A stretch of 61,710 nt of DNA from Minisyncoccia bacterium (GCA_041740795.1 JBGSLH010000004.1:1-61710); one strand, 5' to 3'; numbered from the stretch's first letter, positions 2,256-61,375 are shown. Made by a program: numbers and translations. The notes: generated by a model from the sequence alone, not told the origin.

Positions 2256-2298
2256 AGAATCCTTTACAAATAGACTATAGTGTGCTATTATATATTGG

Positions 2299-2604
2299 AT
2301 GAAAACTGTTCTATCCGTTACTGCTGTCGCCATGTTTGTCGTTCTCGCCATCTTTGGAATTCAAAGGGGACTGAGAAGTACCTTGAGTGTTCCTTTGGTG
2401 TACATGCCCTCTGATTCAGTGGTTTATGACACGGAAGAAGGATTTGATTCTTCTCCTGTCATTGCCGTTCAGAATCCTGATGGGACATGGATGCGTTCGG
2501 ACAAATGGCCAACAGTCTTGAAGCAACGCTATGAAATCACATACGTATCACCCGATTGGGTGCCTCCGTATGTGGCGGATCCGTCACTTCTCACTTTGAG
2601 ATGA
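2299..2604 (+). CDS. Hypothetical membrane-anchored/secreted protein
   Basis: 101-aa ORF with N-terminal hydrophobic segment, own TTTACA-17-TATTAT promoter and downstream terminator. Confidence 0.75.
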   Translation: MKTVLSVTAVAMFVVLAIFGIQRGLRSTLSVPLVYMPSDSVVYDTEEGFDSSPVIAVQNPDGTWMRSDKWPTVLKQRYEITYVSPDWVPPYVADPSLLTLR

Positions 2605-2624
2605 CACTCTATCGTCTCAATTAT

Positions 2625-2660
2625 AAACCGCCCGGCACCTTGTGTCTGGCGGTTTTTCTT
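2625..2660 (+). terminator. Intrinsic terminator
   Basis: AAACCGCC...GGCGGTTTTT. Confidence 0.7.
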
Positions 2661-2696
2661 TGGATTGACTTGAGCCCGATCTTTGATACAGTAGGG

Positions 2697-2780
2697 AAGT
2701 CGTAAGACAACTGGCCTGTAAGGGATTTATGTGAAGATGCCCCCGCATCTTATCGTAGATCCCTTACAGGCCTTTCTTTA
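2697..2780 (+). ncRNA. Candidate small RNA 1
   Basis: TTGACT(2665)-16-TGaTACAGT promoter; 14-bp perfect stem GGCCTGTAAGGGAT/ATCCCTTACAGGCC then T-rich tail; no ORF. Confidence 0.45.
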
Positions 2781-2843
2781 TCTTGCTGCGACTTTGAGAT
2801 ATCCTCGCTTTACATATTTTGCCACGTCTGGTATTTTAGGTTT

Positions 2844-2920
2844 GAGATCCTCCGGTGACTTCAAGTATTACGCAATGGAGCAATTTGCTTAGGACTTGTC
2901 GGAGGGTCTTTTTACTTTAT
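2844..2920 (+). ncRNA. Candidate small RNA 2
   Basis: TTTACA(2809)-17-TATTTT(2832) promoter; predicted start coincides with base of a long hairpin GAGATCCTCCG/CGGAGGGTCTT followed by a T-run. Confidence 0.45.
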
Positions 2921-2964
2921 TTTTTAAGATATATTTGATATAGTGAGCCGACGGTCAAACGCAT

Positions 2965-3040
2965 GCGCGCGTAGCTCAGTTGGTAGAGCACGTCACTGAT
3001 ACTGACGGGGTCCCAGTTTCGAAGCCTGGCGCGCGCACCA
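2965..3040 (+). tRNA. tRNA-Ile(GAT), non-canonical T arm
   Basis: Cloverleaf: GCGCGCG acceptor, GCTC/GAGC D stem, CGTCA-CTGATAC-TGACG anticodon arm, encoded CCA. Confidence 0.88.
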
Positions 3041-3340
3041 CAAGAAACAGCCCGAGGACTTAGTCCTCGGGCTTTTTCTTGTGGTGCGCGCGGAAACGAA
3101 GCGAAGCTTCGTTTCAAGGATTCGAAAGGCGCAGGCCTAGGGCCCCCGCATCCATAAAGCGACAGCGAAATGGATCTGGGATGGCCGAGCCGGGGTCGCG
3201 AGCACTTAGGAGAATTCGACCGACAGGGAAGAATTATACTTAGTGACTTGTGACCGGATCCTGGATGTTTTTAACTGTGGGGCGAATTCGGTAAGCAACA
3301 TGACTGTGATTTTAAGAACCTGTGCCCGAATCCTGGTGCG
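3041..3340. repeat. tRNA-anchored multi-hairpin element
   Basis: Inverted copy of the tRNA 3' end at 3082-3092, stacked hairpins, and a degenerate direct copy CGAATCCTGGTGCG at 3327-3340. Confidence 0.6.
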
Positions 3341-3344
3341 TTAG

Positions 3345-3899
3345 TTAAGCAATCAATCGTCCTTCAAAGTATCTATTTTCAATTTGAGATATCGCTATAT
3401 TAAAATTAGTTGATTGAATAATTTCAAATGCTTTTTCTTCAAAAGGTTTAAAACTTAGTGGAAGAATATTAATTAGAGTTTTTGAAATTAATTTCTTATC
3501 AAAAATAGAGCTTTCAATATAACCTAATCTTAATAAATACCAAGTTGCAACAAATAGGGAGCAAGGATATTTTTTTGTTTTTACGTAATCTAAAATTTGT
3601 TTTTTTAAAGTGCCATTATGAATCAATGATAGTACCTCATCACAACTTGGAATTAGTTGGGATTCTCTTAAGATGATATCTGGCTGGAATCCTTCTTTTT
3701 TTAACCACTGTGTAAGAATAGTATAATCAAAAGATAGATCGGGAAATGAATAATCATCAACCATTACAACCAGAGTTGTTGATTTGCCTCTGTGTTCTTT
3801 TGTTACGCCTTGAAGTATTTCAACAGAAAACACTTGTTCATCACTAATGTTTTTATTTGTGTAAATATGAGCGTATTCAATAGAGATATCTTTTTTCAT
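3345..3899 (-). CDS. Hypothetical protein, possibly SCO2522-like (HUP/Rossmann-type)
   Basis: 184-aa ORF; motifs SIEYAHIY, VMVDDY, RES, CSLFVATWYLLRLG, ILPxxFxxxE. Confidence 0.75.
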   Translation of the reverse strand: MKKDISIEYAHIYTNKNISDEQVFSVEILQGVTKEHRGKSTTLVVMVDDYSFPDLSFDYTILTQWLKKEGFQPDIILRESQLIPSCDEVLSLIHNGTLKKQILDYVKTKKYPCSLFVATWYLLRLGYIESSIFDKKLISKTLINILPLSFKPFEEKAFEIIQSTNFNIAISQIENRYFEGRLIA

Positions 3900-3935
3900 A
3901 ATAGAAGTATATCAAAAGATTTAATTAGTTATTCC

Positions 3936-4734: not shown

Positions 4735-5733
4735 TTATCTAAAGATATTCGGCTCCGCTTCCAAAACAACATCGAAAGATTCCTGCACCAACTTTGTAAT
4801 GCGTGTGATTACCTGCAAGAGGTCTTGAAACGACGCATCTCCTGTATTTATCAAAATCAACTTATTCGCTTCGTTAAAAATCACCGTATCATTTTGTGTC
4901 AAAAGATAATCCACATGTTCGATCAACCAGCCGGCATAGAGTTTGATCTGATCGTCTTCTGTTTTAAAAAAGGGAATGTTCGGATAATGCACGAGGAGTT
5001 TCTCCAAATGTTTTTGATTGATAATTGGATTTTTAAAAAACGAACCACAGTTGGGAAAGATTTTGTAATCGGGAATCTTCTTGTTCCGTATTTCGATAAT
5101 TGCATTACGTATCTCGACAAGAGTCGGATGAGATTTTGTAAAATATTCCTGTACTGCTTTGTATGCAGGGATATCAGGAAGGGTAGTCTGAAGTCTGATC
5201 CTGATATTCAAGATGACATACTGTCTCGGGTTTTGCTTAAAAATACTGTCTCGATATGCGAACAAACAATCTCTCTTTGAGAAGATCTCATACGTATTTT
5301 TTTCTCTATCAAACACTTCCGCTTCTACAAAAACATTTGCGAGTTCTGCTCCGTATGCTCCGATATTTTGAACCGGTGCTGCGCCGACTGTTCCAGGTAT
5401 TCCTGACAGTGCTTCGATGCCAGAAAGGTTTTTAGCTACCGTCCATGCCACCAAATCCTCCCATGATTCGCCGCCCTGGGCAGTTACGATAACTGTGTGG
5501 TCCGATTCCTGTTGGACAGTGATTCCTTTGAGTCTCATTAGTCCGATGATGTAGTGGTTGGTACTCTCGCCAAAGATTGAATTCGATCCTTCTCCGATGA
5601 TAATAAGTGGTTTATCCACATCTCTCGAATATGAGTTTATTTTTTCTATATCCGATTTTTCATTAATTTCAAATACTCTGTGGGCAATGCCACCTATTTT
5701 GAAGGTGGAGTATACTCTCAAATCAAGATTCAT
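4735..5733 (-). CDS. murB: UDP-N-acetylenolpyruvoylglucosamine reductase
   Basis: STFKIGG, IGEGSNSIF, GIPGTVGAAPVQNIGAYG, NCGSFFKNP, EPN; start re-assigned to MNLDL. Confidence 0.96.
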   Translation of the reverse strand: MNLDLRVYSTFKIGGIAHRVFEINEKSDIEKINSYSRDVDKPLIIIGEGSNSIFGESTNHYIIGLMRLKGITVQQESDHTVIVTAQGGESWEDLVAWTVAKNLSGIEALSGIPGTVGAAPVQNIGAYGAELANVFVEAEVFDREKNTYEIFSKRDCLFAYRDSIFKQNPRQYVILNIRIRLQTTLPDIPAYKAVQEYFTKSHPTLVEIRNAIIEIRNKKIPDYKIFPNCGSFFKNPIINQKHLEKLLVHYPNIPFFKTEDDQIKLYAGWLIEHVDYLLTQNDTVIFNEANKLILINTGDASFQDLLQVITRITKLVQESFDVVLEAEPNIFR

Positions 5734-5736
5734 ACG

Positions 5737-5754
5737 TATATCATATGTGATATA
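5737..5754. promoter_or_regulatory. Palindrome overlapping divergent murB/murA -10 elements (candidate operator)
   Basis: TATATCA-TATG-TGATATA in a 29-bp intergenic gap. Confidence 0.55.
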
Positions 5755-5762
5755 TTGGGTAT

Positions 5763-7280
5763 ATGTCAAAAAAGAATTCAGCATCAGATTCCTTGCAGAA
5801 AATCGGAACACTTATCAAGTCACTCAGGTCACAGAAAGGTCTTACTCAAGGTGATTTTGCAAAACTACTCAAGACATCACAGAGCGCCGTTGCACGGATA
5901 GAATCCGGAAATCAGAATCTTACAACGAACGAAATTCTCAAGATTGGAGAAGTTCTTCATCGTAAAATAATCTCACTCGACAAGTCGATCGATTTTAAAA
6001 TCATCGGAGGAAAAAAACTCAGCGGTTCAATCGAGACGAATACGTCCAAGAACGGCGCGATGGGATTGCTCTGCGCATCTCTACTCAACAAAGGAACTAC
6101 AATTCTCAGACGCGTGCCACGTATCGAAGAAGTGAATCGAGTACTTGAAGTGTTCGATAGTATCGGTGTGCAGTACAAATGGGAAGGGACGACCCTGACT
6201 ATCAAACCTCCCAAAAAATTCAAGATGAGCAACTTGCAGGCGGAGTCTGCTAGTAAAATCCGTTCTGCACTTATGATGATTGGTTCGCTTATACATCATG
6301 TCGAATCTTTTGATCTTCCTCATGCAGGAGGATGCAAGATGGGAGAGCGAACCATCGCAGCTCACCGCTACGGACTCGAAGAGCTTGGAATCAAGATTGA
6401 TACGAAGTCTGATTTTTATAAGATATCAAAAAAGAAACTGCACAGGGCGGACATTGTCATGTACGAAGCAGGTGACACAGCTGTGATCAATATTCTTCTT
6501 GCTGCAGCGGGGATTCCTCAAGAAACCAACATCTCATTTGCTTCGTCGAATTACCAGGTCCAGGAGGTGTGCTTTTTTCTCCAGAAGATGGGAGTGATTG
6601 TTGAAGGAATCGGAACACATCGGCTCAAGGTAAAAGGAATAAAAGATATTAATATGACAATTGAATTTTCATGTGCAGAAGATCCGATCGAGTCCATGAT
6701 GTTTATTGCTGCCGCGATTGTTACGCAGTCCGAATTGACCGTCAAAAAATGCCCAATCGATTTTCTTGCTCTCGAACTCCTCAAACTAGAGAAAATGGGA
6801 CTCAAATATAAAAAGAGCAAAGTATACAAATCTGAGAATGAGCACACTGACCTTGTTGATGTTGTCGTGTATCCATCGAAGCTAGTCGCGCCTGCAGACA
6901 AGATCGCTGCCATGCCGTATCCAGGAATCAACACGGACAACCTTCCGTTTTTTGTTCCGATAGCAACACAAGCAGAAGGGCAGACTCTTATACATGACTG
7001 GATGTGGGAAAATCGCGCGATCTATTTTACGGAACTTAATAGGCTCGGTGCCAACATTAAGCTTGCAGATCCTCATCGTGTGTTCGTAATAGGAAAGACT
7101 CCACTTAAGGCCGCGCAGATCGTGTGTCCGCCTGCGCTTCGTCCTGCGATGATCATCTTGATCGCGATGCTTGCAGCACCGGGCGAATCTATCTTGAGAA
7201 ACGTATATGCGATTGAAAGAGGATATGAGGATATTGCAAATCGTCTGAATTCCATCGGGGCGGATATCAAGATTGTGTAA
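5763..7280 (+). CDS. murA: XRE-HTH fused UDP-N-acetylglucosamine 1-carboxyvinyltransferase
   Basis: N-terminal LRSQKGLTQGDFAKLLKTSQSAVARIESG HTH; SKNG, LPHAGGCKMGER (catalytic Cys), PYPGINTD, RGYE. Confidence 0.95.
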   Translation: MSKKNSASDSLQKIGTLIKSLRSQKGLTQGDFAKLLKTSQSAVARIESGNQNLTTNEILKIGEVLHRKIISLDKSIDFKIIGGKKLSGSIETNTSKNGAMGLLCASLLNKGTTILRRVPRIEEVNRVLEVFDSIGVQYKWEGTTLTIKPPKKFKMSNLQAESASKIRSALMMIGSLIHHVESFDLPHAGGCKMGERTIAAHRYGLEELGIKIDTKSDFYKISKKKLHRADIVMYEAGDTAVINILLAAAGIPQETNISFASSNYQVQEVCFFLQKMGVIVEGIGTHRLKVKGIKDINMTIEFSCAEDPIESMMFIAAAIVTQSELTVKKCPIDFLALELLKLEKMGLKYKKSKVYKSENEHTDLVDVVVYPSKLVAPADKIAAMPYPGINTDNLPFFVPIATQAEGQTLIHDWMWENRAIYFTELNRLGANIKLADPHRVFVIGKTPLKAAQIVCPPALRPAMIILIAMLAAPGESILRNVYAIERGYEDIANRLNSIGADIKIV

Positions 7281-7359
7281 TAAAACTGACTAAAATCTTT
7301 CTAAAGAAATTTATAATCTGTGGAAAAGTCGCTTTTTTGGATGTGCTATGCTGAAGACA

Positions 7360-7638
7360 ATGAAACGAAAACTTTCTACAAAAGAACGTGATGAAGTGGT
7401 GACAAAAGGATATCTTGAAGATCAGGATTTTGTAACGAAACAGTATATCGAAGAGCAAAATTTTGTAACCAAGGACTATCTCGATATGAGACTCGAGACT
7501 TTTCAAAAAGATATGTACCAACACATTACTGCGCTTATGGAACATAATCGAGAACAAACACTTGTCTTGATCGATGCGTTTCAGGGTAGATTCGAACGGA
7601 TTGAACGGCGACTTGATATTGGAGCATGGGGTGCGTAA
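7360..7638 (+). CDS. Small coiled-coil protein with (F/V)VTKxY repeats, paralog of 57957-58301
   Basis: KLSTKERDEVVTKGYLED...FERIER shared with the second copy; start set by -10 spacing. Confidence 0.8.
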   Translation: MKRKLSTKERDEVVTKGYLEDQDFVTKQYIEEQNFVTKDYLDMRLETFQKDMYQHITALMEHNREQTLVLIDAFQGRFERIERRLDIGAWGA

Positions 7639-9649: not shown

Positions 9650-9682
9650 GTGTTTATGCAGATAATATGATAGATTAGGCGT

Positions 9683-10354
9683 ATGTCAAATCTATACGTA
9701 GTCGCAACTCCCATAGGGAACCTCAAAGATATCACTTTGCGGGCACTCGAAATTCTCAAGCATGCAGATATTATCCTCTGTGAAGACACTCGGACGACCA
9801 AAAAACTCCTCTTTGCATATCAGATTTCTGCCAAGTGCATCGCCTTCCACAAGTTCAGTACGGATAGGGAAATCGAATCCATCCTCAATCTTTTTGAAAC
9901 ATACGAGCATGTCGCGCTTGTGAGTGATGCAGGAACTCCAGCTATCAGTGATCCTGGATCGCTTTTGATAAAGCTCGTCCGAGAACAGAAGCCAGAAGTT
10001 TCGATCCAGGGAATCGCCGGTGCGAGTGCTATAACGACTGCTATTTCTATCTCAGGACTACCAATGGCACAGTTCACCTTTATGGGATTTCTTCCACACA
10101 AGAAGGGGAGACAGAAAAAGCTGGATGAGGCGCTCACCTACGGACACTCAGTTATCTTTTACGAGTCGACACATCGCATCCTCAAACTTCTCGAAGAGAT
10201 CGAAACAAGACAGCCTGAACGTCGAATCCTGATTTGCAAAGAACTGACCAAGATGCATGAGCGGGTACTGTCTGGAACAGCGAGAGAACTTTTGACCCAG
10301 ATCGAGCTTGATCCATCTTTACAAAAAGGAGAATTTGTTTTGATTTGCGAATAA
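9683..10354 (+). CDS. rsmI: 16S rRNA C1402 2'-O-methyltransferase
   Basis: LYVVATPIGNLKDITLRA, CEDTR, VSDAGTPAISDPG, FYESTHR, KELTKMHE, KGEFVL. Confidence 0.97.
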   Translation: MSNLYVVATPIGNLKDITLRALEILKHADIILCEDTRTTKKLLFAYQISAKCIAFHKFSTDREIESILNLFETYEHVALVSDAGTPAISDPGSLLIKLVREQKPEVSIQGIAGASAITTAISISGLPMAQFTFMGFLPHKKGRQKKLDEALTYGHSVIFYESTHRILKLLEEIETRQPERRILICKELTKMHERVLSGTARELLTQIELDPSLQKGEFVLICE

Positions 10355-10390
10355 TTTTGGATTAGTAAACCTTTCATTTATAATACGAAT

Positions 10391-10738
10391 ATGAAAGTGT
10401 ATAAATTCATCTTTATCGTAGGTTTTCTTAATCTCAGTATTCCATTTTTTGGTATTCCATTCGTCTACAAGAATTATGCAGTGATCACTCTTGCTATCAT
10501 CACTCTCGGATATGCACTTATCGTTCGAGCAGTGGAGAAGGAGCGTCAGAATCACATGGTACAGACCAAGACAACTCCTGCTGTAGAAAATAGTGAATCA
10601 AAAATTCCTGTTCACCGCAAAAAGATAGAGGATGTTGTCGAGATGGTAGAACAGAAGGATCGCATAATAATCACTGATATTACACCCAAGAGACGGGCAC
10701 GCAAGCCAAAAGTAGTACACGAAGACGTTTATGAATAA
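10391..10738 (+). CDS. Hypothetical two-TM membrane protein
   Basis: Two N-terminal hydrophobic helices and charged tail; stop overlaps next ATG. Confidence 0.75.
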   Translation: MKVYKFIFIVGFLNLSIPFFGIPFVYKNYAVITLAIITLGYALIVRAVEKERQNHMVQTKTTPAVENSESKIPVHRKKIEDVVEMVEQKDRIIITDITPKRRARKPKVVHEDVYE

Positions 10739-15820: not shown

Positions 15821-15871
15821 TCATATGTTTTTGCTTCCACCTTTCTTCTTTTACTTATATAATACTTTCAA

Positions 15872-27836: not shown

Positions 27837-27839
27837 GTG

Positions 27840-37218: not shown

Positions 37219-37248
37219 AATATATGCGAATCATGCTATATTTGGTCA

Positions 37249-39759: not shown

Positions 39760-39775
39760 GAGATATGATAGGGAT

Positions 39776-40930: not shown

Positions 40931-40931
40931 T

Positions 40932-43422: not shown

Positions 43423-43438
43423 TGATACAATAATTCCA

Positions 43439-44320
43439 ATGCTTGCGATATTACTTACCTACTTTTTTCTTCTCGGACTTGCGATTGGAAGTTTTCTCAA
43501 TGTCGTAATCCTGAGACACAACACAGGCAAGACGACGGGTGGAAGGTCTGCATGCATGGTTTGCAAGAATCAACTTGGATGGAAAGAACTCGTGCCGCTT
43601 TTTAGTTTTCTTTTTCAGAGAGGGAAGTGTGCTCACTGCAGAACAAGAATCAGTTGGCAGTATCCGCTGGTAGAATTCTCGACTGCGGTTCTTTTTACCC
43701 TTAACTTCTATTATCTCTTTACAGAGTCACGTTCGATATCTGAGCTGATCCTTTCTGTCGGACTGACCTCGTGCATCTGGGCGTTGCTTGTTGTGATATT
43801 CGTATATGACTTGCGACACAAGATTATTCCAGATGTATTCTCGGGAGCACTTTTTGTACTCAGTATCTTACTTGTACTTTCATCCCGGATTTATTCCGGG
43901 ATCTCTTGGTTTTATTACGAGATCCCGCATCTTCGTCCGTCTTCGACAGACTTCGTGCAGGATGGCAGTGTACTTACGTACCTTAACTTGAGTGCTGGCG
44001 TTATTTTTTATCTTGTAATTTATGCGATATGGAAACTTTCAAACGGACGCCTCATTGGACTCGGAGACGCAAAACTTCTTCTTGGTACGGGAACTATTCT
44101 TGGATTCGTATATGGACTGTCGTCGATTGCACTTGCTGCATGGATCGGATGTGTGTACGTGATTTTTGTCTTGTTGAAACAAAGATTGAGTATAAAGGGT
44201 AAACATATTACAATGAAAACAGAAATTCCGTTTGGTCCGTTTCTCATTCTTGGATTCTTGATCGTGTACTTCCTGCGAATCGATGTGACTAATCTGGGTT
44301 TTATTTTAGAAAACTTTTAA
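43439..44320 (+). CDS. pilD: Prepilin peptidase (A24) with in-frame palindromic insertion
   Basis: IGSFLNVVI, RSACMVC, GKCAHC, YDLRHKIIPD, IGLGDAKL, PFGPFL. Confidence 0.93.
   Translation: MLAILLTYFFLLGLAIGSFLNVVILRHNTGKTTGGRSACMVCKNQLGWKELVPLFSFLFQRGKCAHCRTRISWQYPLVEFSTAVLFTLNFYYLFTESRSISELILSVGLTSCIWALLVVIFVYDLRHKIIPDVFSGALFVLSILLVLSSRIYSGISWFYYEIPHLRPSSTDFVQDGSVLTYLNLSAGVIFYLVIYAIWKLSNGRLIGLGDAKLLLGTGTILGFVYGLSSIALAAWIGCVYVIFVLLKQRLSIKGKHITMKTEIPFGPFLILGFLIVYFLRIDVTNLGFILENF
43879..43966 (-). mobile_element. RPE-like palindromic element B3, reverse orientation, in-frame in pilD
   Basis: TCATCCCGGATTTATTCCGGGATCTC-TTGGTTTTATTAC-GAGATCCCGCA... is the reverse complement of B2; encodes SSRIYSGISWFYYEIPHLRPSSTDFVQDG. 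Confidence 0.85.
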
Positions 44321-48727: not shown

Positions 48728-48758
48728 GAGAATATATTTACATGCTACTATGGGCTTT

Positions 48759-49043
48759 ATGAATAAAGACGATATCAAACATCTTGCGCATCTTTCGCGT
48801 CTCCATCTCGAAGATGATGAGGCAGAAGCCTTCACACATCAATTTGATGAGATTGTTGCATATGTTGATAAAATTAAAGAAATCTCTTCTGATCTTGGTT
48901 CCGATATTATCGAATCTAACGAAGTTCGAAATGTTCTTCGAGAAGATATCGTTGTTTCTTATCAAAATCCTGAAAACATAATTAACGAAGCTCCGTCTCA
49001 CTCCGATAACTTCGTGAAGGTTAAAAAGATTCTCAATCAATAA
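48759..49043 (+). CDS. gatC: Asp/Glu-tRNA amidotransferase subunit C
   Basis: DIKHLAHLSRL, LRED, VKVKKIL; upstream of gatA. Confidence 0.92.
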   Translation: MNKDDIKHLAHLSRLHLEDDEAEAFTHQFDEIVAYVDKIKEISSDLGSDIIESNEVRNVLREDIVVSYQNPENIINEAPSHSDNFVKVKKILNQ

Positions 49044-49044
49044 T

Positions 49045-50451
49045 ATGAACATTTCTGAATTTACAATTGAAACACTCAATGCAAAATTGATTTCAAAAGA
49101 ACTTTCTGTTCAGGAAGTTGTCGATGCATTCATTTCTCGAATTTATGAAAAAAATGATGAACTCAATGTGTTTATCGAAATTCATAAAGATTTTATCCAA
49201 AAACAAATACTCGTTGCTCAATCAAAAATAGATGACGGGAGCGCGACTATTTTGACAGGTATTCCAATTGCCGTTAAAGATAATATCTTAATCAAAGGAG
49301 AAAAAATCACAGCTGCTTCAAAAATCTTAGAAGGCTATACTGCGACATATGATGCGACCGTCATTGAGAAATTAAAATCACACGGAGCAATTCTTATACC
49401 TCGGGCAAATATGGACGAATTTGCCATGGGAGCGACGACAGAGAACTCTGCTTTTGGGGTGACGAAGAATCCACATGATATGGGCCGTGTTGCAGGAGGA
49501 TCATCGGGAGGAAGTGCCGTAGCGGTTGCTGCTGGGATGACCGTTGCTTCTCTTGGTTCTGATACTGGAGGATCAGTCAGACAACCAGCATCTCTTTGTG
49601 GAGTAGTGGGATTAAAACCTACGTATGGAAGCGTGTCTCGAAATGGCCTTATCGCAATGGCGAGCTCATTTGATGTGATTGGACCGATCACTAAGAATGT
49701 CGCTGATTCCAAAATTATTTTTAATGCGATCAAAGGAACCGATCCTCTTGACCAGACGACTGTGCTTAAGGAGATTTCATCAGAAGTAAAAAAAATAGGT
49801 GTACCATATCATTTTCTTAAATCAGGTATAGATGCGGATGTACTCGAAGTTTTTAATTCGAACATTGAAAAACTCAAAGGTCTTGGATATGAAATCGTAG
49901 ATATTTCAATTCCGAGTTTTGAATACGCACTTTCTATTTATTATATTCTTGTTCCTGCAGAAGTTTCTTCCAATATGTCACGTTTTGATGGAGTGAAGTT
50001 TGGAGCAAAAGTAGAGGGAAAAGATCTTACTGATGATTATTTTAAAACTCGAGGTACACTTCTTGGAACAGAAGTAAAACGACGGATCATGCTTGGTACA
50101 TATGTGCTTTCGGCTGGATATGCAGATGAATATTATAGAAAGGCATGGGTAGCTCGTAATGCGATTAAGTCAGAGGTCAAAACTATTTTTGAACAAGTAG
50201 ATATGATTGCGATGCCAGTATCACCTTTTCCTGCATTCAAAATTGGTGAAATGTCTTCAGACCCACTCAAGATGTATCTTGCTGATATATTTACTGTATC
50301 TGCAAACGTAGCTGGTGTTCCTGCGATTTCTATTCCTGCAGGAACAGTTGTACGAGAAGATAAAAATCTTCCAATTGGTTTACAACTCATCGCGCCATGG
50401 CATGGTGAAGAACGCCTCTTTAATGTTGGAGCAAAATTTGAGATACTGTAG
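49045..50451 (+). CDS. gatA: Asp/Glu-tRNA amidotransferase subunit A
   Basis: GIPIAVKDN, NMDEFAMG, GGSSGGS, GSDTGGSVRQPA. Confidence 0.97.
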   Translation: MNISEFTIETLNAKLISKELSVQEVVDAFISRIYEKNDELNVFIEIHKDFIQKQILVAQSKIDDGSATILTGIPIAVKDNILIKGEKITAASKILEGYTATYDATVIEKLKSHGAILIPRANMDEFAMGATTENSAFGVTKNPHDMGRVAGGSSGGSAVAVAAGMTVASLGSDTGGSVRQPASLCGVVGLKPTYGSVSRNGLIAMASSFDVIGPITKNVADSKIIFNAIKGTDPLDQTTVLKEISSEVKKIGVPYHFLKSGIDADVLEVFNSNIEKLKGLGYEIVDISIPSFEYALSIYYILVPAEVSSNMSRFDGVKFGAKVEGKDLTDDYFKTRGTLLGTEVKRRIMLGTYVLSAGYADEYYRKAWVARNAIKSEVKTIFEQVDMIAMPVSPFPAFKIGEMSSDPLKMYLADIFTVSANVAGVPAISIPAGTVVREDKNLPIGLQLIAPWHGEERLFNVGAKFEIL

Positions 50452-51973: not shown

Positions 51974-52975
51974 TTAGATCTCACTCACTCTATATCCACT
52001 CGGAGCATTTTTCAGATATTCTTCTATCTTTGCTTGTGAAAGAAGTCCTGCTTGCGCACCTATATATTGAACAACCGACATCGAGTTGATTGGTCCCCAG
52101 AGAAATGCTTCCTGAAAAGGTTTGCCAAGCGCAAGGGCTGAAGTGATAGTTGATGCGAAAGAATCTCCTGCACCAGTTCGATCGACAGGTTCCTTAAGAT
52201 CTGGATACATTGGTACTTGATACGTCTTTGATTCGTAGAGTGCGTGTGCTCCGTTTGGTCCGTCTGTAATGATAGGAATCTGTGGACCTAGATCTTTTAT
52301 ATTTTGTAACAATATTTTTATATCAGATTCTTTTGTGTTCAAAATAGTCTGAGCTTCTTCTTTATTACAGAAAAACAGATATGTGTGAGCGTATAGATCC
52401 TTAAGTGCATCATATCCAAGTTTTATTTGAAATGTCCCTGGTTGAAATGCTAATTTGGTATTCGTATTCTTTTTCAAAAATTCTGCGATTTGGTGATGGT
52501 ACTCAAGAGAGTTTTCTGCAAGTGAACTGAGATACATAAAAGACGGTGCAGGAGAAATATTTGGGAACGAGTAGGGGAACTCTGTGTGCTTCACAAGGAT
52601 CGTTCGTTCTGCTCCTAATCTGAGAACATAATGATAATTAGATTTCTGATCTTTATGTACGAGAACGTATTTGGTATTGATACCTTCTTTTTTAAGTGCT
52701 TGAATTTGCTCTCGTCCAAAAGCATCGTCTCCAGTATTAGTTACCAGTCCAGTTTTGAGTCCGAGTCTATGTGCACTTACTCCTGCATTCGGGCTATTTC
52801 CAACAGCAGCCACTACTACGACATCATTGAAAGGGAGCTTTGTACCGAATTTCATACAGAGTTCTTTTTCTCCTGCAGGATTGTCAGTCTCGACCCATGC
52901 GCTGTTAAGTTCGATAAAGGCGTCAGTCACAATATCTCCGACTGCTATAAAATCCAATTTTTTGAAGTTAAACAT
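51974..52975 (-). CDS. PfkB-family carbohydrate kinase
   Basis: GNSPNAG, FCNKEEA, ITDGPNGA, DRTGAGDSF. Confidence 0.93.
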   Translation of the reverse strand: MFNFKKLDFIAVGDIVTDAFIELNSAWVETDNPAGEKELCMKFGTKLPFNDVVVVAAVGNSPNAGVSAHRLGLKTGLVTNTGDDAFGREQIQALKKEGINTKYVLVHKDQKSNYHYVLRLGAERTILVKHTEFPYSFPNISPAPSFMYLSSLAENSLEYHHQIAEFLKKNTNTKLAFQPGTFQIKLGYDALKDLYAHTYLFFCNKEEAQTILNTKESDIKILLQNIKDLGPQIPIITDGPNGAHALYESKTYQVPMYPDLKEPVDRTGAGDSFASTITSALALGKPFQEAFLWGPINSMSVVQYIGAQAGLLSQAKIEEYLKNAPSGYRVSEI

Positions 52976-52999
52976 ATGAAAGGATTATATCATTAGCAC

Positions 53000-53139: not shown

Positions 53140-53170
53140 GACACTGTGAATATGTTATACTAAGCCTCAT

Positions 53171-54028
53171 ATGACACTCAAAGAAACAATTTTAGACGCC
53201 AAGGCGCGTAAGGTAGCAGTCGGACATTTTAATGTATCTAATCTCGAAGCGGTGCATGCGATCAAGGAAGCCGTGCAGGAAACTGGATATCCTGTAATCA
53301 TAGGTCTCTCAGAAGGCGAAGGGGAATTCTTTGGTTTGCGCGAACTTGTTGCGATCGTTCGGGAATATCAGTCTCGAGGACTGCCTATCTTTACGAATGC
53401 TGATCATTCATATTCTTTTCAGCGAGCACAGAGTGCAATCGACGCAGGATTTGATGCAGTGATTATTGATGGTGCTGATTTGCCTCATGAAAAAAATATT
53501 GCAATGACAAAAGAAGTAGTTGAGTATGCACGATCTCAAAATCCAAACTGTCTTGTAGAAGCCGAGATTGGATTTATTGGAAAATCTTCAAATATTTTGG
53601 ACAAAATTCCTGAAGGAGTCGGAACAGAAGAATTTCTTACTAAGCCTGAAGAAGCAAAGGCATTCGTAGATGCGACAGGTGTCGACATGCTTGCTCCTGC
53701 AGTCGGTAATCTTCATGGAATGCTCAAGGACATGCCTAATCCTCGACTTGATATTCCTAGGATCCAGGCGATTGCGGATGCAACAGGCGTCCCACTTGTA
53801 CTTCATGGTGGTTCTGGGATTAGTGTCGAAGATTTCAAGGCAGCAATCGCAGCAGGAATTTGTATTGTGCATATCAACACCGAAATTCGAATAGCATACA
53901 AGGAAGCTCTGATAAAAGGACTTGCGGACAATGCGGATCAAGTTGCTCCGTACAAATTTCTCAAGCCTGCACAGGAGGCAGTCAAAAAGGTAATAATCGA
54001 GAAGCTAAAAGTATTTAACAATGGGTAA
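53171..54028 (+). CDS. fba: Class II fructose-bisphosphate aldolase
   Basis: NADH, VEAEIG, VDMLAPAVGNLHG, LVLHGGSG, NTEIR. Confidence 0.93.
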   Translation: MTLKETILDAKARKVAVGHFNVSNLEAVHAIKEAVQETGYPVIIGLSEGEGEFFGLRELVAIVREYQSRGLPIFTNADHSYSFQRAQSAIDAGFDAVIIDGADLPHEKNIAMTKEVVEYARSQNPNCLVEAEIGFIGKSSNILDKIPEGVGTEEFLTKPEEAKAFVDATGVDMLAPAVGNLHGMLKDMPNPRLDIPRIQAIADATGVPLVLHGGSGISVEDFKAAIAAGICIVHINTEIRIAYKEALIKGLADNADQVAPYKFLKPAQEAVKKVIIEKLKVFNNG

Positions 54029-55751: not shown

Positions 55752-55791
55752 TATTGCCTTTTCAAAAAAAATCTGTATACTGTTAAACACT

Positions 55792-56421
55792 ATGTTAAAA
55801 CTTAAAGTATTGAAAAGAGACGCAACTGAAGTTGCAGAAGATATCCGAGCAGCTGGTTCTATTCCTGCTGTATTCTATGGTCCAAAGGAAGCTGCACAGT
55901 CTATCAAGATCGTATATCCTGATTTTGAAAAGGCCTTCAAGGAAGCCGGAGAGTCAACAGTTGTGACTCTTGTTGTTGATGGAGAAGAACATGAAACTCT
56001 CATTCATGACGTTTCATACCACCCTGTTCGAGGAACTGTCGCTCACGTGGATTTTTATGTAATTGAAAAAGGTAAAAAAGTACAGGTACATGTACCGCTT
56101 GAATTCACAGGAGTTGCGCCAGCCGAAAAGACTCTCGGAGGTACGCTCATGAAAGTTATGCACGAAGTTGAGATCGAAGCGATGCCAAAGGATCTTCCTC
56201 ACGAAATTATCGTAGATATCTCATCTCTTGTAGACTTCGATTCACAGATTCATGCTTCTGATATCGTGCTTCCTTCTGGAGTTACACTTATCGCTGAAGA
56301 CGACGAAGTAATCGCTCTTGTACAGGCTCCAAACGAAGAATCTGACGAACCAGCAGAAGCAGTAGATATTTCATCTATTGAAGTAGAAAAGAAAGGGAAG
56401 AAAGAAGAACCTGCAGAGTAA
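55792..56421 (+). CDS. rplY: 50S ribosomal protein L25/CTC
   Basis: IPAVFYG, HVDFY, VHVPLEFTG, DLPHEIIVDIS, acidic tail. Confidence 0.95.
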   Translation: MLKLKVLKRDATEVAEDIRAAGSIPAVFYGPKEAAQSIKIVYPDFEKAFKEAGESTVVTLVVDGEEHETLIHDVSYHPVRGTVAHVDFYVIEKGKKVQVHVPLEFTGVAPAEKTLGGTLMKVMHEVEIEAMPKDLPHEIIVDISSLVDFDSQIHASDIVLPSGVTLIAEDDEVIALVQAPNEESDEPAEAVDISSIEVEKKGKKEEPAE

Positions 56422-56458: not shown

Positions 56459-56549
56459 AAAAAGCGCCCTTCGGGCGCTTTTTGTTATAATTAGCCATTA
56501 GTCAACTCTCGCTTCAAATAAAGTATGAAGTCTGATAGAATAGATTTCT

Positions 56550-57890
56550 ATGAGTTATAGATTTTTGTTCAAAAAATTGAATATTTTCCTGCTGTGCATA
56601 TTGATTCTCACGCTCTCTTTTTATGTAGATGTTCATGCTCAGTCAGAAGAACAGTTGAAGGAAGAACTCGCCAAGACTGAAGCTGAGATCAAAGAACAAG
56701 AAGCCATCTTGAACGCGCAAAAAGTAAAATCAAACGTGATTCTCGGAGAAGTTCAAAAACTCACGTCGCAAATCAATACTGTACAGAAGAACATTGATGC
56801 CAAAAATTCTGTAATCAAGGAAATTGGTTCGGATATCAATATCAAGGACCAGACGGTAAACCAACTTAACGATAAGCTTGATCGGAGTACTGAAGTGCTT
56901 GCTGAACTTATCCGTGCCAAGAATAAGATTGACGACGTTTCTCTTTTTGAAATCGTGACCGCATACGAGAATCTTTCCGAATTTTTTGTTGGAGTTGATT
57001 CTGTTTCTACTATCCAAAAATCAGTAGACAGTCTGCTTGATCAAATCAGAGAACTAAGAGGACTTACACAGGAAGAAAAAACAAAGCTTGAAGAAAAGAA
57101 AAATCGAGAGCAGGACATCAAGGTGAAGATTGAAGCCGAAAAGAAAGTTGTTGCCGTAAAGCAGGGTGAGCAGAAAGGTCTTCTCGCTGCATCAAAGGCT
57201 GTTGAACAGACTCACGAACAGGAACTTGCTGCTAAGCGAGCTAAGGCGAATACTATTCGAAGCGCACTCTTCAAATTGCGAGATACACAAGGGATTTCTT
57301 TTGACGAAGCTCTTAAATATGCTAGCGCGGCATCCAAGGCAACAGGAGTACGAACTGCATTTATCCTTGCTATCTTAAAACAAGAATCAAATCTTGGAAC
57401 GAACGTTGGAACATGTAACCGAGCTGGAGATCCTGAAGAAAAGAAATGGTACAACATCATGCCAGGACCAACGAGTGGATCATGGCGGGATGATCAAACA
57501 ACCTATCTTGCGATCGTTAAGCAGCTTGGTCGAGATCCTGAAACCACACCACTCTCTTGTCCAATGGGAAGCGGTTGGGGAGGAGCGATGGGACCATCAC
57601 AATTCATCCCGACTACCTGGAAAGGATATGCAGGACGAGTTGCGTCCGCACTCGGAGTAAGTCTTGCTGATCCATGGAATCCTCAACATGCATTCATGGC
57701 TACTGCTATCTACATGTCGGATCTCGGAGCAGGAGCGCAGACCTATACCGCAGAACATACAGCGGCTCTCAAGTACTATGCTGGAGGTAATTGGTCCCTT
57801 CCACAGAACCAGTTCTACGGTAACGGAGTGATGGGGCATGCAACTACGTTCCAGGACAATATCGATTTCTTGGACAGTGTTGAGGACTAA
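56550..57890 (+). CDS. Coiled-coil lytic murein transglycosylase (SLT_2-like)
   Basis: N-terminal anchor, long coiled coil, AILKQESNLG, GGAMGPSQFIPTTW, DPWNP. Confidence 0.88.
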   Translation: MSYRFLFKKLNIFLLCILILTLSFYVDVHAQSEEQLKEELAKTEAEIKEQEAILNAQKVKSNVILGEVQKLTSQINTVQKNIDAKNSVIKEIGSDINIKDQTVNQLNDKLDRSTEVLAELIRAKNKIDDVSLFEIVTAYENLSEFFVGVDSVSTIQKSVDSLLDQIRELRGLTQEEKTKLEEKKNREQDIKVKIEAEKKVVAVKQGEQKGLLAASKAVEQTHEQELAAKRAKANTIRSALFKLRDTQGISFDEALKYASAASKATGVRTAFILAILKQESNLGTNVGTCNRAGDPEEKKWYNIMPGPTSGSWRDDQTTYLAIVKQLGRDPETTPLSCPMGSGWGGAMGPSQFIPTTWKGYAGRVASALGVSLADPWNPQHAFMATAIYMSDLGAGAQTYTAEHTAALKYYAGGNWSLPQNQFYGNGVMGHATTFQDNIDFLDSVED

Positions 57891-57956
57891 AATCTTTATA
57901 AAGTGGGTTTATTTCTCTGGGGAAAACTCAAGTAGTGATGATGATATGATTGAGGC

Positions 57957-58301
57957 ATGACAGGAGTAAAATTATCTCAAAAGGAACGTGACGAAGTGGT
58001 GACAAAAGGATATCTTGAAGATGTCTTGGATCAGAGGAATTTTGTAAATAAAGACTATTTTCATAATACGCTGAATCTGGTACTTGAGAGCAAGAATTAC
58101 TCTACCAACGACAGGTTGGATATGGTAATAGAAGAGGTTGCAAGCATTAAGACCCAGCTTTCCCAGATGCAGATTGAACTAGGAGAAGACAACCGACGAC
58201 ACATGAGTGCTCTGATGGAAGATAACCGTCATCAGATTAGTTTACTGATCGAGGCTTTTGAAGCTCGGTTTGAACGAATTGAGCGTAAGGTGTTTGCATA
58301 A
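57957..58301 (+). CDS. Small coiled-coil protein, paralog of 7360-7638
   Basis: KLSQKERDEVVTKGYLED...ALMEDNR...RFERIER. Confidence 0.8.
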   Translation: MTGVKLSQKERDEVVTKGYLEDVLDQRNFVNKDYFHNTLNLVLESKNYSTNDRLDMVIEEVASIKTQLSQMQIELGEDNRRHMSALMEDNRHQISLLIEAFEARFERIERKVFA

Positions 58302-58313
58302 AGGCGACGGTCT

Positions 58314-58375: not shown

Positions 58376-58412
58376 TTTACAAAACAAGGCTTTCTGCTAT
58401 AGTACTACCACT

Positions 58413-58622
58413 ATGAAAAAAGATATCCACCCAACATACTACGCAAACGCAGTGACCACATGTGCATGTGGTGCTTCATTTGAAGTTGGTTCAACAAAGG
58501 AAAAGCAGAACATTGAAATCTGCTCACAATGTCACCCTTTCTATACTGGTCAAGAAAAAACACTCGACGCAGCTGGACGAGTAGAAAAATTCAAAGCTCG
58601 AATGGCAAAATCAAAGAATTAA
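58413..58622 (+). CDS. rpmE: 50S ribosomal protein L31 (Zn-binding type)
   Basis: MKKDIHPTY, CACG, EICSQCHPFYTG; terminator 58630-58661. Confidence 0.97.
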   Translation: MKKDIHPTYYANAVTTCACGASFEVGSTKEKQNIEICSQCHPFYTGQEKTLDAAGRVEKFKARMAKSKN

Positions 58623-58670
58623 CTTTTGTAAGAGGGGCGCGCCGCAGGCGCGCCCCTCTTTGCCTTTACA

Positions 58671-59642
58671 ATGACATACGAAGAAGCACTACAACACAAA
58701 GAAAATCCTCGGGTACAGTATTTTGTTTCTGAAATAGAACGACTTGAAAACGCGAAAAAAGAAACGGAGGAACTTTTGAATAATCCGGACATGAAAGATA
58801 TGGCCGAAGAAGAACTCAAGTCACTTACTCTTGAGCAGCAGAGTTTTTTCGATCAGATGACAGAAAGCCTTAAAAAAGAGGAAGCGGAAGAAGAATTTCC
58901 AAATGAGATTATCCTTGAGGTGCGTGCAGGTGCAGGAGGAGACGAAGCATCTATCTTTGCATATCAGTTGGCAGAAATGTACGAACGATATGCCGAAAAA
59001 CAAAATTGGAATATGATCAAGCTCGAGGAATCACTCAGTTCTGTCGGAGGCTACAAGGAAGCGACATTTGAAGTGAGGGGACAAGATGTATATAAAAAGC
59101 TTCGATATGAAACAGGTGTGCATCGCGTACAACGAATTCCTAAGACCGAAAGTAAGGGACGTGTGCATACATCGACTGCGTCTGTCGCTGTTTTGCCTAT
59201 GCGTAAAAAAACGAAGCTTGTCCTACATCCCGACGATCTTGAGATGGAATTCTCACGAGCTGGAGGAAAGGGAGGTCAGAACGTGAATAAAGTAGAAACG
59301 GCGGTACGACTCGTGCACAAGCCGACCGGATTCGATGTGCGTTCAACGGCGCAGCGAAGTCAGCTCAAGAACAAGGAAACGGCTTTGGCTATCTTGACTG
59401 CCAAGGTGGAGCAGCACTATGAGGCGATCGAAGCTGCCAAATACTCGTCTGAACGTAAGGACCAGATCGGAACATCTGACCGGTCAGAAAAAATCAGGAC
59501 ATATAACTTTCCACAGAACAGGATCACTGATCACCGAATCAAGCAGTCGTGGCACAGTATTGAGAGTACGCTTGCCGGAAATCTTGATCCGATCATCGAA
59601 AGCATGCAGGCCGGAACGGTCGGAGATGCGGACGAGGACTAA
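58671..59642 (+). CDS. prfA: Peptide chain release factor 1
   Basis: [26 protein letters not shown] (PxT), [18 protein letters not shown]. Confidence 0.93.
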
Positions 59643-59703
59643 TCTAGCTTGTTTCTTGGGTCTCTATTGCCAATTTTAAATATATTTGTTACTATCCACC
59701 TAC

Positions 59704-60414
59704 ATGAAATCAGTAAATACAGACAATACAGTAGCTATCGAATCAATGCTCCAAGTAGGAGCACATTTTGGATATGCAAAGTCAAGGCGTCACCCGTCGA
59801 CAAAATCTTTTATCGCAGGTAGCAAGAACGGATATGAGATCATCGATCTTGATCAGACTGCAAACCAGACTCAGAAGGCAGTAGCTTTCGTTTCAGAAGT
59901 CGCAAAGGATCGAGGACAAATCCTGTTCGTAAGTACCAAAAAAGAATTTGCATCAATCGTCAAAGATGCGGCGATGTCTATCGACCAACCGTACGCTATC
60001 GTACGGTGGATCGGAGGTACTCTCACTAACTTCGAAGAAATTTCAAAACGAGTAAAGCGACTCGAAACCCTTCTTGAACAGAAGTCAAAAGGTCTTCTTG
60101 CAAAATACACAAAGAAGGAACGACTTATGATCGACCGAGAGATCGAGAACCTTGAAGAACGATTCGGAGGAATTACAAACATGAAATTCAAGCCAAAGGC
60201 GATGTTTGTAATCGATAGCAAGCACGAAGAGATTGCTGCACAGGAAGCGATCAATGAGAAGATTCCGGTAGTAGGACTTTCAAACTCTGACTGTGATGTC
60301 AGCAACCTTACATACCCTATTATTGCAAACGACTCTTCAGTAAAGAGTGTAAAATTTTTTATCGCTCAGATCGTAGAAGCATACAAGTCTTCAAAAGAAG
60401 AAAAGAAAGCGTAA
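59704..60414 (+). CDS. rpsB: 30S ribosomal protein S2
   Basis: VGAHFG, RWIGGTLTNF, IANDSS; TTGCCA-17-TACTAT promoter. Confidence 0.97.
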   Translation: MKSVNTDNTVAIESMLQVGAHFGYAKSRRHPSTKSFIAGSKNGYEIIDLDQTANQTQKAVAFVSEVAKDRGQILFVSTKKEFASIVKDAAMSIDQPYAIVRWIGGTLTNFEEISKRVKRLETLLEQKSKGLLAKYTKKERLMIDREIENLEERFGGITNMKFKPKAMFVIDSKHEEIAAQEAINEKIPVVGLSNSDCDVSNLTYPIIANDSSVKSVKFFIAQIVEAYKSSKEEKKA

Positions 60415-60444
60415 TTTTACCAAGTAACACACATACAAATAATT

Positions 60445-61026
60445 ATGAGTATTTCAACAGAAGTAATCAAGCAATTACGAGACGCGACAGGTGTCTCTAT
60501 CATGCAGTGCAAAAAGGCACTTGAAGAAGTGGGTGGAGATATTGAAAAAGCAAAAGTCATCCTACAAAAATACAGCAAGGCCGCGGCTGATAAAAAGTCA
60601 GACCGAACTCTTGGGGCAGGGACTGTTGCGTCATACATTCACCAGGGCGGAGCTGTTGGAGTGCTTGTAGAGCTTATGTGTGAGACTGACTTTGTATCAA
60701 AGAATGAAGCATTCCAGGCTCTTGCCAAAGATATCGCAATGCATGTTGCGGCTCTCGCTCCTCGATTTATGCGAAAAGAGGACATCAAGGAAGAAGATAC
60801 GACTGCTGCCAAAGAAGTATTCGCAGAAGAAACAGAAGGGAAGCCTGAAGAATTGAAGGCAAAGATCCTTGCAGGTAAACTCGATGCATACTTCAGCGAA
60901 AAAACTCTCCTCGAACAGCCTTTCATAAAAAACCCGGACAAGACAATCGCGCTTCTTATCGACGAAGCATCACAGAAGTTCGGAGAAAAAGTGGAAATCA
61001 CTCGGTTTACGCGATACTCAATCTAA
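60445..61026 (+). CDS. tsf: Elongation factor Ts (short form)
   Basis: IKQLRDATGVSIMQCKKAL, VELMCETDFV, LLEQPFIK. Confidence 0.97.
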   Translation: MSISTEVIKQLRDATGVSIMQCKKALEEVGGDIEKAKVILQKYSKAAADKKSDRTLGAGTVASYIHQGGAVGVLVELMCETDFVSKNEAFQALAKDIAMHVAALAPRFMRKEDIKEEDTTAAKEVFAEETEGKPEELKAKILAGKLDAYFSEKTLLEQPFIKNPDKTIALLIDEASQKFGEKVEITRFTRYSI

Positions 61027-61061
61027 AGCTATTAGCTAAGGGCTTACAGCTTTTAGCATTG
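61027..61061 (+). repeat. Heptamer tandem array (AGCTATT consensus), copy 2
   Basis: AGCTATT AGCTAAG GGCTTAC AGCTTTT AGCATTG directly after the tsf stop. Confidence 0.7.
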
Positions 61062-61066
61062 CAACC

Positions 61067-61375
61067 ATGATAATAGAACTCATCACAATTAGTGTCTCCT
61101 CCATTATTCTGTTTTTGATTTATTTTGCGCGTCTCAAGTCGACAAATGGAGACACATTCCTTTTTTCTGAAAGATTTCTGAATAGGGCAGACGAGGCAAT
61201 TTTTGGTTTTATAAAATTCATCTACAAGATGAACGCGCTCCTTTTCCATAATATATCAGGATTTGTAGCACACATTCCCCATAGAACCATCCACGTGATT
61301 CACGGGATTTCACATTCGATTACGGAATATACAAGTAATTTAGTAGAAAAAATCACCCACAAGAATACAAAATAA
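61067..61375 (+). CDS. Hypothetical membrane-anchored protein
   Basis: 102-aa ORF with N-terminal TM. Confidence 0.7.
   Translation: MIIELITISVSSIILFLIYFARLKSTNGDTFLFSERFLNRADEAIFGFIKFIYKMNALLFHNISGFVAHIPHRTIHVIHGISHSITEYTSNLVEKITHKNTK

Follow-up and report, generated by a model that had tools for sequence, protein, structure and literature searches.

Extended −10 promoters abut start codons in a Parcubacteria-type genome without an anti-Shine-Dalgarno sequence and probably give rise to leaderless mRNAs

Introduction

How do ribosomes find start codons in a bacterium whose 16S rRNA has lost the anti-Shine-Dalgarno (anti-SD) sequence? The question is raised by a 61,710-nucleotide stretch of DNA from a Minisyncoccia bacterium (GCA_041740795.1, JBGSLH010000004.1:1-61710; hereafter the window), in which many genes carry a −10-like box, TANNNT, a few nucleotides upstream of the ATG. 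The original prediction was that initiation relies mainly on leaderless mRNAs, made from promoters that abut the start codon, together with translational coupling. Absence of the anti-SD, along with rRNA and ribosomal-protein losses, has been described in Parcubacteria (Tsurumaki et al., 2022, PMC9297842; also Brown et al., 2015, cited there). As that report neither mentions leaderless mRNAs nor explains how initiation works, an account of how such ribosomes find start codons would fill a gap.

The window corresponds to contig C4 in an assembly of 653 kb (16 contigs, ~40% GC, ~80% complete). The nearest public SecA loci come from records titled Paceibacterota, Nomurabacteria, Taylorbacteria, Kaiserbacteria, or Zambryskibacteria, and we therefore take the organism to be a Parcubacteria-type member of the candidate phyla radiation (CPR). 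Genes were called with our own Markov-model caller, which gave 588 genes and 86% coding sequence. We rejected an alternative genetic code, as the tiling of open reading frames (ORFs) agrees with table 11.

Results

We compared the placement of −10 boxes with chance in three independent designs: centered on the motif and free of gene calls, centered on genes, and restricted to the heads of transcription units. Gaps are counted as the nucleotides between the −10 hexamer and the start codon. After the 156 best extended −10 motifs in the genome (TGnTA[TC]A[AC]T), an ATG followed at gaps 6, 7, and 8 in 29.5%, 10.9%, and 8.3% of cases, or 49% combined, compared to ~1.5% at any other gap. Similarly, the 89 TGnTAWAAT sites had an ATG at gaps 6-8 in 34 cases, at 12-14 in five, and at 18-20 in three. 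When we began from the genes, TGnTAnnnT lay at gap 6-9 before 23% of first ATGs, versus 0-1% at other gaps and 0.1-0.3% for internal ATGs, and before 24% of the 588 called genes, versus 2-4% at control offsets.

At transcription-unit heads, an extended box at gap 6-9 was found in 33%, compared to 2-4% in shifted windows or shuffled upstream sequence, and strong boxes that lack the extension were found in 13%, compared to 5-9% in controls. Weak TANNNT (fewer than five of six matches and no TG) was not enriched at these heads (11% versus 15-20% in controls). Thus, the positional enrichment over shuffled controls that was anticipated for TANNNT is borne out for extended boxes and fails for the weak form. 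The loose TANNNT criterion alone would not discriminate; it works because most of the examples first listed are strong boxes. Since refinement of the −10 model with a position weight matrix and expectation maximization became stuck on the TG, we assigned boxes to explicit classes and derived a conservative lower bound from a mixture. By this bound, no fewer than 28% of all genes, and 36-39% or more of unit heads, carry a positional −10 signal. A −10 box is set against the start codon in at least a third of transcription units, and their mRNAs would probably begin at the AUG.

Aligned sites have the form TnTGnTAtAaT, with TG at −15/−14 and T at −17, and a weak −35 TTG ~17 bp upstream. The modal gap is 6, found in 85 of 178 strong sites (48%), which makes the A of the ATG the seventh base past the hexamer and therefore the canonical +1. 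Directly before the ATG, ~75% of sites have a pyrimidine and 3-4% a G, with the A next; a pyrimidine at −1 and a purine at +1 is the usual context of a transcription start site (TSS). The start codon is ATG in 206 of the 214 genes (96%) in the class with a start-adjacent promoter. Nearly all recognizable promoters of the extended −10 type in the genome adjoin a start codon: at distances that would leave a leader, extended boxes are barely above chance (60 observed and 44 expected, 188 genes). The motif is found at 4% of tightly coupled internal genes, compared to 33% of unit heads.

The same motif precedes 12 of the 30 tRNA genes (~4 expected). Because it also precedes these non-coding genes, it works where nothing is translated and is not a translation signal. 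In six of the 30, an extended or consensus −10 box lies 8-12 nt before the mature 5′ end (~0.3 expected), and the pre-tRNA leaders would therefore be only ~1-5 nt. Examples of short-leader tRNAs are tRNA-Arg 13696 on contig C5, tRNA-Thr 66614 on C11, and tRNA-Leu 64109 and 64390, tRNA-Cys 64701, and tRNA-Arg 34847 on C12. We also considered life without RNase P and rejected it, as a full-length RNase P RNA is encoded at C12:27616-27964 (98.8 bits, E = 1e-31).

In the window, we read each of the 17 starts for which a box had been proposed and computed the gaps. All 17 coordinates proved correct, with TAnnnT 6-8 nt upstream of the ATG. Twelve boxes are TG-extended, four are not but match TATAAT at five or more of six positions (5733, 10391, 15872, and 39776), and one (61067) is weak. 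We found four further sites: 27836 (minus strand), 53171, and 58413, which are TG-extended with gap 9, and 55792, with gap 10. All 21 are listed below, from box (or TG) to start codon.

2283..2301, plus: ORF of 101 aa, ATG 2299; TGcTATTAT, hexamer 2286-2291, gap 7; −35 TTTACA at 17 bp
3897..3914, minus: 184-aa ORF, ATG 3899; TGaTATACT, hexamer 3906-3911, gap 6
5731..5745, minus: murB, ATG 5733; TATGAT, hexamer 5740-5745, gap 6; −35 TTGACA at 18 bp; supersedes ORF-track GTG 5811
5748..5765, plus: HTH-MurA fusion, ATG 5763; TGaTATATT, hexamer 5751-5756, gap 6; divergent from murB
7344..7362, plus: ATG 7360; TGcTATGCT, hexamer 7347-7352, gap 7; ORF-track ATG 7348 falls within the −10 box
9668..9685, plus: TP_methylase/RsmI-like, ATG 9683; TGaTAGATT, hexamer 9671-9676, gap 6; Pfam profile position 2 at residue 4
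10379..10393, plus: 115-aa ORF, first of an ABC-type operon, ATG 10391; TATAAT, hexamer 10379-10384, gap 6
15858..15874, plus: ATPase resembling type IV secretion coupling proteins, ATG 15872; TATAAT, hexamer 15858-15863, gap 8
27834..27854, minus (additional): GHMP kinase, ATG 27836; TGcTATGCT, gap 9; internal promoter of a long minus-strand glycan operon
37234..37251, plus: secA, ATG 37249; TGcTATATT, hexamer 37237-37242, gap 6; terminator immediately before
39764..39778, plus: signal-peptide protein, ATG 39776; TATGAT, hexamer 39764-39769, gap 6; supersedes TTG 39731
43423..43441, plus: prepilin peptidase (pilD), ATG 43439; TGaTACAAT, hexamer 43426-43431, gap 7; supersedes TTG 43373
48743..48761, plus: gatC, head of gatCA, ATG 48759; TGcTACTAT, hexamer 48746-48751, gap 7; supersedes ATG 48723
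52973..52992, minus: PfkB-family kinase, ATG 52975; TGaTATAAT, hexamer 52984-52989, gap 8
53153..53173, plus (additional): class II fructose-bisphosphate aldolase (Fba), ATG 53171; TGtTATACT, gap 9
55776..55794, plus (additional, borderline): ribosomal protein bL25/TL5, ATG 55792; TATACT, gap 10; probably a 2-4 nt leader
56533..56552, plus: SLT-domain protein, ATG 56550; TGaTAGAAT, hexamer 56536-56541, gap 8
57942..57959, plus: 114-aa ORF, ATG 57957; TGaTATGAT, hexamer 57945-57950, gap 6
58395..58415, plus (additional): ribosomal protein bL31, ATG 58413; TGgTATAGT, gap 9; supersedes ORF-track ATG 58371
59687..59706, plus: ribosomal protein uS2, ATG 59704; TGtTACTAT, hexamer 59690-59695, gap 8; supersedes TTG 59686
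61054..61069, plus: ATG 61067; TAGCAT, hexamer 61054-61059, gap 7; weakest of the 17 (four of six, no TG)

ORFs 2299 and 61067 have no Pfam match and are absent from our own gene calls. The −10 box of 39776 starts 5 nt past the secA stop. The ATGs of murB and the HTH-MurA gene are only 29 bp apart (window 5731-5765) and their −10 boxes stand back to back, so that each −35 lies inside the other gene.

Several repeats accompany these promoters. A palindromic element, TACCTCGCTCCGACC...GGTCGGAGCGAGGTA, occurs in two copies, 2203-2258 and 43379-43422, directly upstream of putative leaderless promoters; in the copy before 43439, the 3′ arm continues directly into the TG-extended −10 box. A 28-nt inverted repeat (96% complementary; 52999-53026 and 53113-53140) lies between the genes for the PfkB-family kinase and the aldolase. 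Each arm contains its own CCCGC-GAAG-GCGGG hairpin and lies just upstream of one of the two divergent promoters. The repeat may represent a pair of operators or one member of a family of palindromic repeats. Downstream of bL31, the release-factor gene 58671 (PCRF and RF-1 domains; window 58623-58673) has no promoter and is separated from bL31 by a GC-rich perfect hairpin, GAGGGGCGCGCC-GCAG-GCGCGCCCCTC. Its PCRF match begins only at profile position 29.

The promoters change seven ORF-track starts in the window, the six flagged earlier and that of bL31. Pfam alignments support the earlier corrections at four genes. The FAD_binding_4 match of MurB from 5733 begins at residue 20, and MurB_C is present; A24_N_bact position 1 falls at residue 11 of PilD from 43439; the GatC profile (1-66) covers residues 17-88 of the protein from 48759; and Ribosomal_S2 position 1 falls at residue 15 of uS2 from 59704. 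Additionally, Ribosomal_L31 (1-63) coincides with residues 1-63 from 58413. For Fba from 53171, profile position 2 is residue 2. The shorter form of 39776 has a signal-peptide-like N terminus, MRYLYAICLSVFVFMSA. Pfam profiles thus start at or near the promoter-guided N termini and confirm the corrected starts.

To assess conservation, we used five genomes of the same genus, whose SecA proteins are 80-83% identical. For secA, 39776, pilD, and gatC, the ATG is still preceded by a −10 box, at 6-9 nt, in all 19 same-genus orthologues recovered. The arrangement is retained in five of five genomes at secA and in four of four at gatC, and the −10 of 39776 is kept at 6-8 nt in five of five. At pilD, TGnTA(T/C)A(A/C)T lies 7-9 nt before the ATG in all five, though the upstream DNA cannot be aligned. 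In more distant Parcubacteria, 52 of 72 secA loci have an extended or strong box at a gap of 5-10 before the conserved N terminus.

The 16S rRNA gene lies at window 79-1730 (1354 bits). It is interrupted by an AT-rich insertion of ~180 nt (window 1190-1370) and is not followed by a 23S gene; ORF 2299 comes next and then tRNA-Ile (2965). Its 3′ end is as follows.

1717..1730, plus: 16S rRNA 3′ tail, GGATTATTTCAAAT, without the CCTCC anti-SD

The rRNA tail reads GGAUUAUUUCAAAU and contains no CCUCC; the 16S ends ...GUGGAUUAUUUCAAAU in this genome, where the corresponding E. coli end is ...UUGGAUCACCUCCUUA. CCUCC is also missing from the tails of all 13 relatives with a 16S 3′ end, which range from genus to order level and share GGAWUnWUUCAA. 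Beyond this motif (window 1717-1745, loci L002-L019), the partly complementary UGAA/GAAG could form a tiny hairpin.

SD motifs were seen in no gene class. Among the 365 genes without a start-adjacent promoter, GGAGG occurs before none and GGAG is depleted, with seven genes at −20 to −2 versus 27 at −60 to −42. G as a whole is depleted at −12 to −1 before starts (7-13%). The loss of the anti-SD that the original prediction assumed is therefore confirmed by the genome's own 16S tail, by its relatives, and by the depletion of SD cores before starts. We also rejected a replacement pairing with the new tail, AUUUGAAAU, as the matching motifs are not enriched (TTTGAAA, none of 365; GAAAT, 12 versus 6).

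Ribosomal protein uL1 (PF00687) was found in none of 31 genomes, our own (only ~80% complete) and 30 relatives up to order level (28 of them at least 90% complete), and in 14 of 14 control genomes. The absence of uL1 from these genomes places the organism in the uL1-less subgroup in which Tsurumaki et al. reported frequent anti-SD absence (PMC9297842). Era was likewise above cut-off in none of the 31 genomes, where matches covered the GTPase domain only. Era binds the GAUCACCUCC end of 16S rRNA, according to Tu et al. (2011) as cited in PMC10582724, and its loss may have lifted one constraint on the 16S tail.

Overlapping or closely spaced genes form the second large class. As had been proposed for many internal operon genes, stop and start codons often overlap or abut: 146 of the 588 genes, and 28 of the 57 in the window, overlap the upstream stop codon or follow it within 15 nt. 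The commonest junction genome-wide is TAA-N1-ATG (26), followed by TAA-N2-ATG (14), TAA-N3-ATG (13), and ATGA (11). TAA-N1-3-ATG accounts for 53 of the 146 coupled cistrons and ATGA/TAATG overlaps, the usual bacterial junctions, for 14. G at −1 is avoided before every start class (2-5%, compared to 28% before internal ATGs). Two junctions in the window are examples.

40927..40934, plus: coupled junction; stop TAA, one T, ATG 40932
49040..49047, plus: gatC-gatA coupled junction; TAA-T-ATG 49045

Several coupled junctions are conserved within the genus. That of gatC-gatA is identical in one same-genus genome, and in the others the stop is 1-3 nt from the ATG. Orthologues of 40932 in two same-genus species (L157/G002 and L158/G005) have their own start-adjacent extended −10 promoter, whereas the gene is coupled here (TAA-T-ATG). 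Thus, a gene can switch start mode over short evolutionary distances.

Genome-wide, the start is marked by an extended or strong box in 36% of genes; 25% overlap the stop codon of the preceding same-strand gene or follow it within 15 nt, 4% follow at 16-40 nt, and 32% show neither signal. The 57 genes in the window comprise 17 predicted to be leaderless (18 with murB), 28 coupled, four at 16-40 nt, and eight others. The claim that initiation relies mainly on leaderless mRNAs and coupling therefore describes ~55-60% of genes genome-wide and ~80% in the window, but does not extend to the roughly one-third with neither signal. Start regions of all classes are AT-rich and predicted to be unstructured, with minimum free energies over 40 nt of about −2 to −3 kcal/mol, versus −4.5 to −5 kcal/mol inside genes; single figures for the two are about −2.3 and −4.6 kcal/mol. 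Loss of ribosomal protein bS1 was considered and rejected, as the genome encodes a 390-aa bS1 that has three or more S1 domains. For the unexplained third, these unstructured A/U-rich starts, together with bS1, are probably the likeliest route.

Discussion

From the motif, its spacing, enrichment, and conservation, the absence of SD and anti-SD sequences, and the junction statistics, we infer where transcription starts and how initiation would proceed. We consider it very likely that extended −10 promoters in this genome are set so that mRNAs start at the ATG or 1-3 nt from it, and that initiation is free of SD pairing. At promoters of the sigma-70 type (TnTGnTAtAaT with a weak −35), RNA polymerase would begin on the A of the ATG or 1-3 nt from it, and the resulting mRNAs would have no 5′ untranslated region (UTR) and no ribosome-binding site. 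Since the ribosome lacks an anti-SD, it would presumably bind the 5′-terminal AUG directly, as in other leaderless systems, either as a 70S ribosome or as a 30S subunit with initiation factor IF2 and initiator tRNA. At later cistrons, translation would mostly be taken up by ribosomes fresh from a stop codon that overlaps the start or lies 0-15 nt from it, typically by termination-reinitiation at UAA-N1-3-AUG. Genes outside these two classes, about a third, probably depend on A/U-rich unstructured start regions together with bS1.

Three observations weigh against this reading. Sites with gaps of 8-10, which make up about 40% of all sites and about a third of strong ones (59 of 178), may give leaders of 1-4 nt. 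Neither a −10 box next to the start nor a nearby upstream stop is present at about a third of genes. Finally, genes and starts were chosen by our own simple caller, and picking among three candidate starts inflates the match rate; the controls were given the same choice of starts, and the motif-centered test is independent of gene calls.

The gap distribution also bears on the alternative that survives best, in which genuine promoters give transcripts that mostly have short leaders, from a few to ~10 nt, and are initiated without SD pairing through the unstructured A/U-rich start and bS1. Besides the 59 strong sites with gaps of 8-10, gap 9 predominates at secA of more distant relatives, bS1 is kept with at least three S1 domains, and the start region is AT-rich and unstructured in all classes, including those with no promoter at the start. 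We nevertheless regard short leaders as an improbable rule. The gap of strong sites is most often exactly 6 nt (48%), so that the canonical +1 falls on the A of the ATG; the pyrimidine at −1 and purine at +1 agree with a TSS at this A; and these genes begin almost only with ATG (96%), as is typical of leaderless initiation.

A second possibility is that the TA-rich box is a non-SD translation signal on leadered mRNAs, as in the "group B" genomes of GeneMarkS-2, such as Bacteroidetes. The box lies at the usual distance of a ribosome-binding site, and a ribosome without an anti-SD might be expected to have a replacement signal. The TG extension and the −35 remnant, the presence of the box before tRNA genes, and its lack of complementarity to the new 16S tail (TTTGAAA in none of 365 genes) make this very unlikely. 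Moreover, the box is nearly missing at coupled internal cistrons (4% versus 33% of unit heads), whereas in group B the motif is also found before internal genes (PMC6028130). A third explanation, that AT-rich intergenic DNA and a choice of starts to suit the motif create the pattern, can be dismissed almost entirely: bare TANNNT is indeed common in AT-rich DNA and its weak form is not enriched, but the test without gene calls gives >10-fold enrichment at gaps 6-8, shifted and shuffled controls reach 2-4% versus 33%, the reversed pattern occurs once versus 76 times, and the arrangement is conserved across species.

Were the leaderless habit old enough to have made SD pairing dispensable, a scenario weighed below, the translation system left in this bacterium would be akin to that of mitochondria or haloarchaea. 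Both haloarchaea and mammalian mitochondria have mostly leaderless mRNAs, with little or no role for SD pairing, and mitochondrial ribosomes also lack an anti-SD. The means differ: haloarchaea use an archaeal TATA box at about −26 and mitochondria process polycistrons, whereas the promoters here are of the bacterial sigma-70 type. In Haloferax volcanii, >60% of transcripts are leaderless (PMC6028130).

Among bacteria, the layout matches that of GeneMarkS-2 group C, whose main lineages are Actinobacteria and Deinococcus-Thermus (PMC6028130). In group C species such as Mycobacterium tuberculosis, Streptomyces, Corynebacterium, and Deinococcus deserti, the first gene of an operon has a Pribnow box 6-8 nt upstream, leaderless mRNAs come from ~25-60% of transcription units, and the 5′ end nearly always bears the start codon (PMC6028130, PMC3898074, PMC4007540). 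With extended boxes at 33% of unit heads and strong ones at a further 13%, compared to ~10% in controls, this genome falls within the share expected of group C (~25-50% of operons). Group C bacteria keep the anti-SD and use SD sequences on internal and leadered genes, whereas this genome has neither; it also differs from them in its TG-extended −10 promoters at 40% GC. Patescibacteria and Parcubacteria are not named in the main-text description of group C (PMC6028130). The genome resembles the anti-SD-less, uL1-less Parcubacteria of PMC9297842 in lacking CCUCC and uL1, in its small size, and in its 16S insertion. It is also like Bacteroidetes/Flavobacteria, which, according to Jha et al. (2021) as cited in PMC9723584, make no use of SD sequences genome-wide and have A/U-rich unstructured starts. 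Bacteroidetes keep but sequester the anti-SD and their mRNAs are leadered, whereas here the anti-SD is gone and many mRNAs apparently have no leader.

On the same scenario, the bacterium would use three SD-free entry routes, namely a 5′-terminal AUG, reinitiation at UAA-N1-3-AUG, and unstructured A/U-rich starts with bS1, with G avoided at −1 in all. The organism offers a natural setting among bacteria where SD-independent initiation is the sole mode, with bearing on the evolution of translation initiation and on CPR gene expression in heterologous hosts. Annotation that looks for SD sequences, by gene callers or by hand, will misplace starts in such genomes, for which TnTGnTAtAaT-N6-ATG is a usable promoter and start rule in future genetics.

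Although the leaderless mechanism is itself known, the case is solid and new at the level of the lineage. In a full-text literature search (Patescibacteria, candidate phyla radiation), we found no description of leaderless genes in CPR bacteria, and a wider search with Parcubacteria and related lineage names returned none among the matches listed. A TM7x transcriptome preprint contains no TSS or UTR analysis.

We also determined how widespread the layout is, using 201 genomes drawn evenly over the Patescibacteria with the reversed pattern as the control. TGNTAYAMT-N6-8-ATG occurred 4651 times and its reverse 882 times (5.3-fold). Enrichment was 4.6-fold in the 109 genomes with a CCUCC tail and 4.4-fold in the 12 with a 16S end lacking CCUCC. 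As it is similar with and without the anti-SD, the layout is phylum-wide rather than a response to anti-SD loss. Tentatively, placing promoters against functional 5′ ends could be an old, phylum-wide habit that made SD pairing dispensable, after which the anti-SD decayed fully in the Parcubacteria branch that lacks uL1 and Era; we find this scenario somewhat less probable than its negation. A parallel measure, AGGAG-N4-9-ATG relative to its reverse, was uninformative: its baseline is not 1, it scores anti-SD-plus and anti-SD-minus genomes alike (1.73 and 1.67), and it shows no correlation with the leaderless signal (rho 0.05). Operon-junction tightness was compared in 100-kb samples of five anti-SD-plus and three anti-SD-minus genomes, with crude gene calls and small numbers. 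Within the set of 201, the genome studied here, with 76 matches versus one reversed, ranks second in excess per Mb and is an extreme case of the phylum-wide layout.

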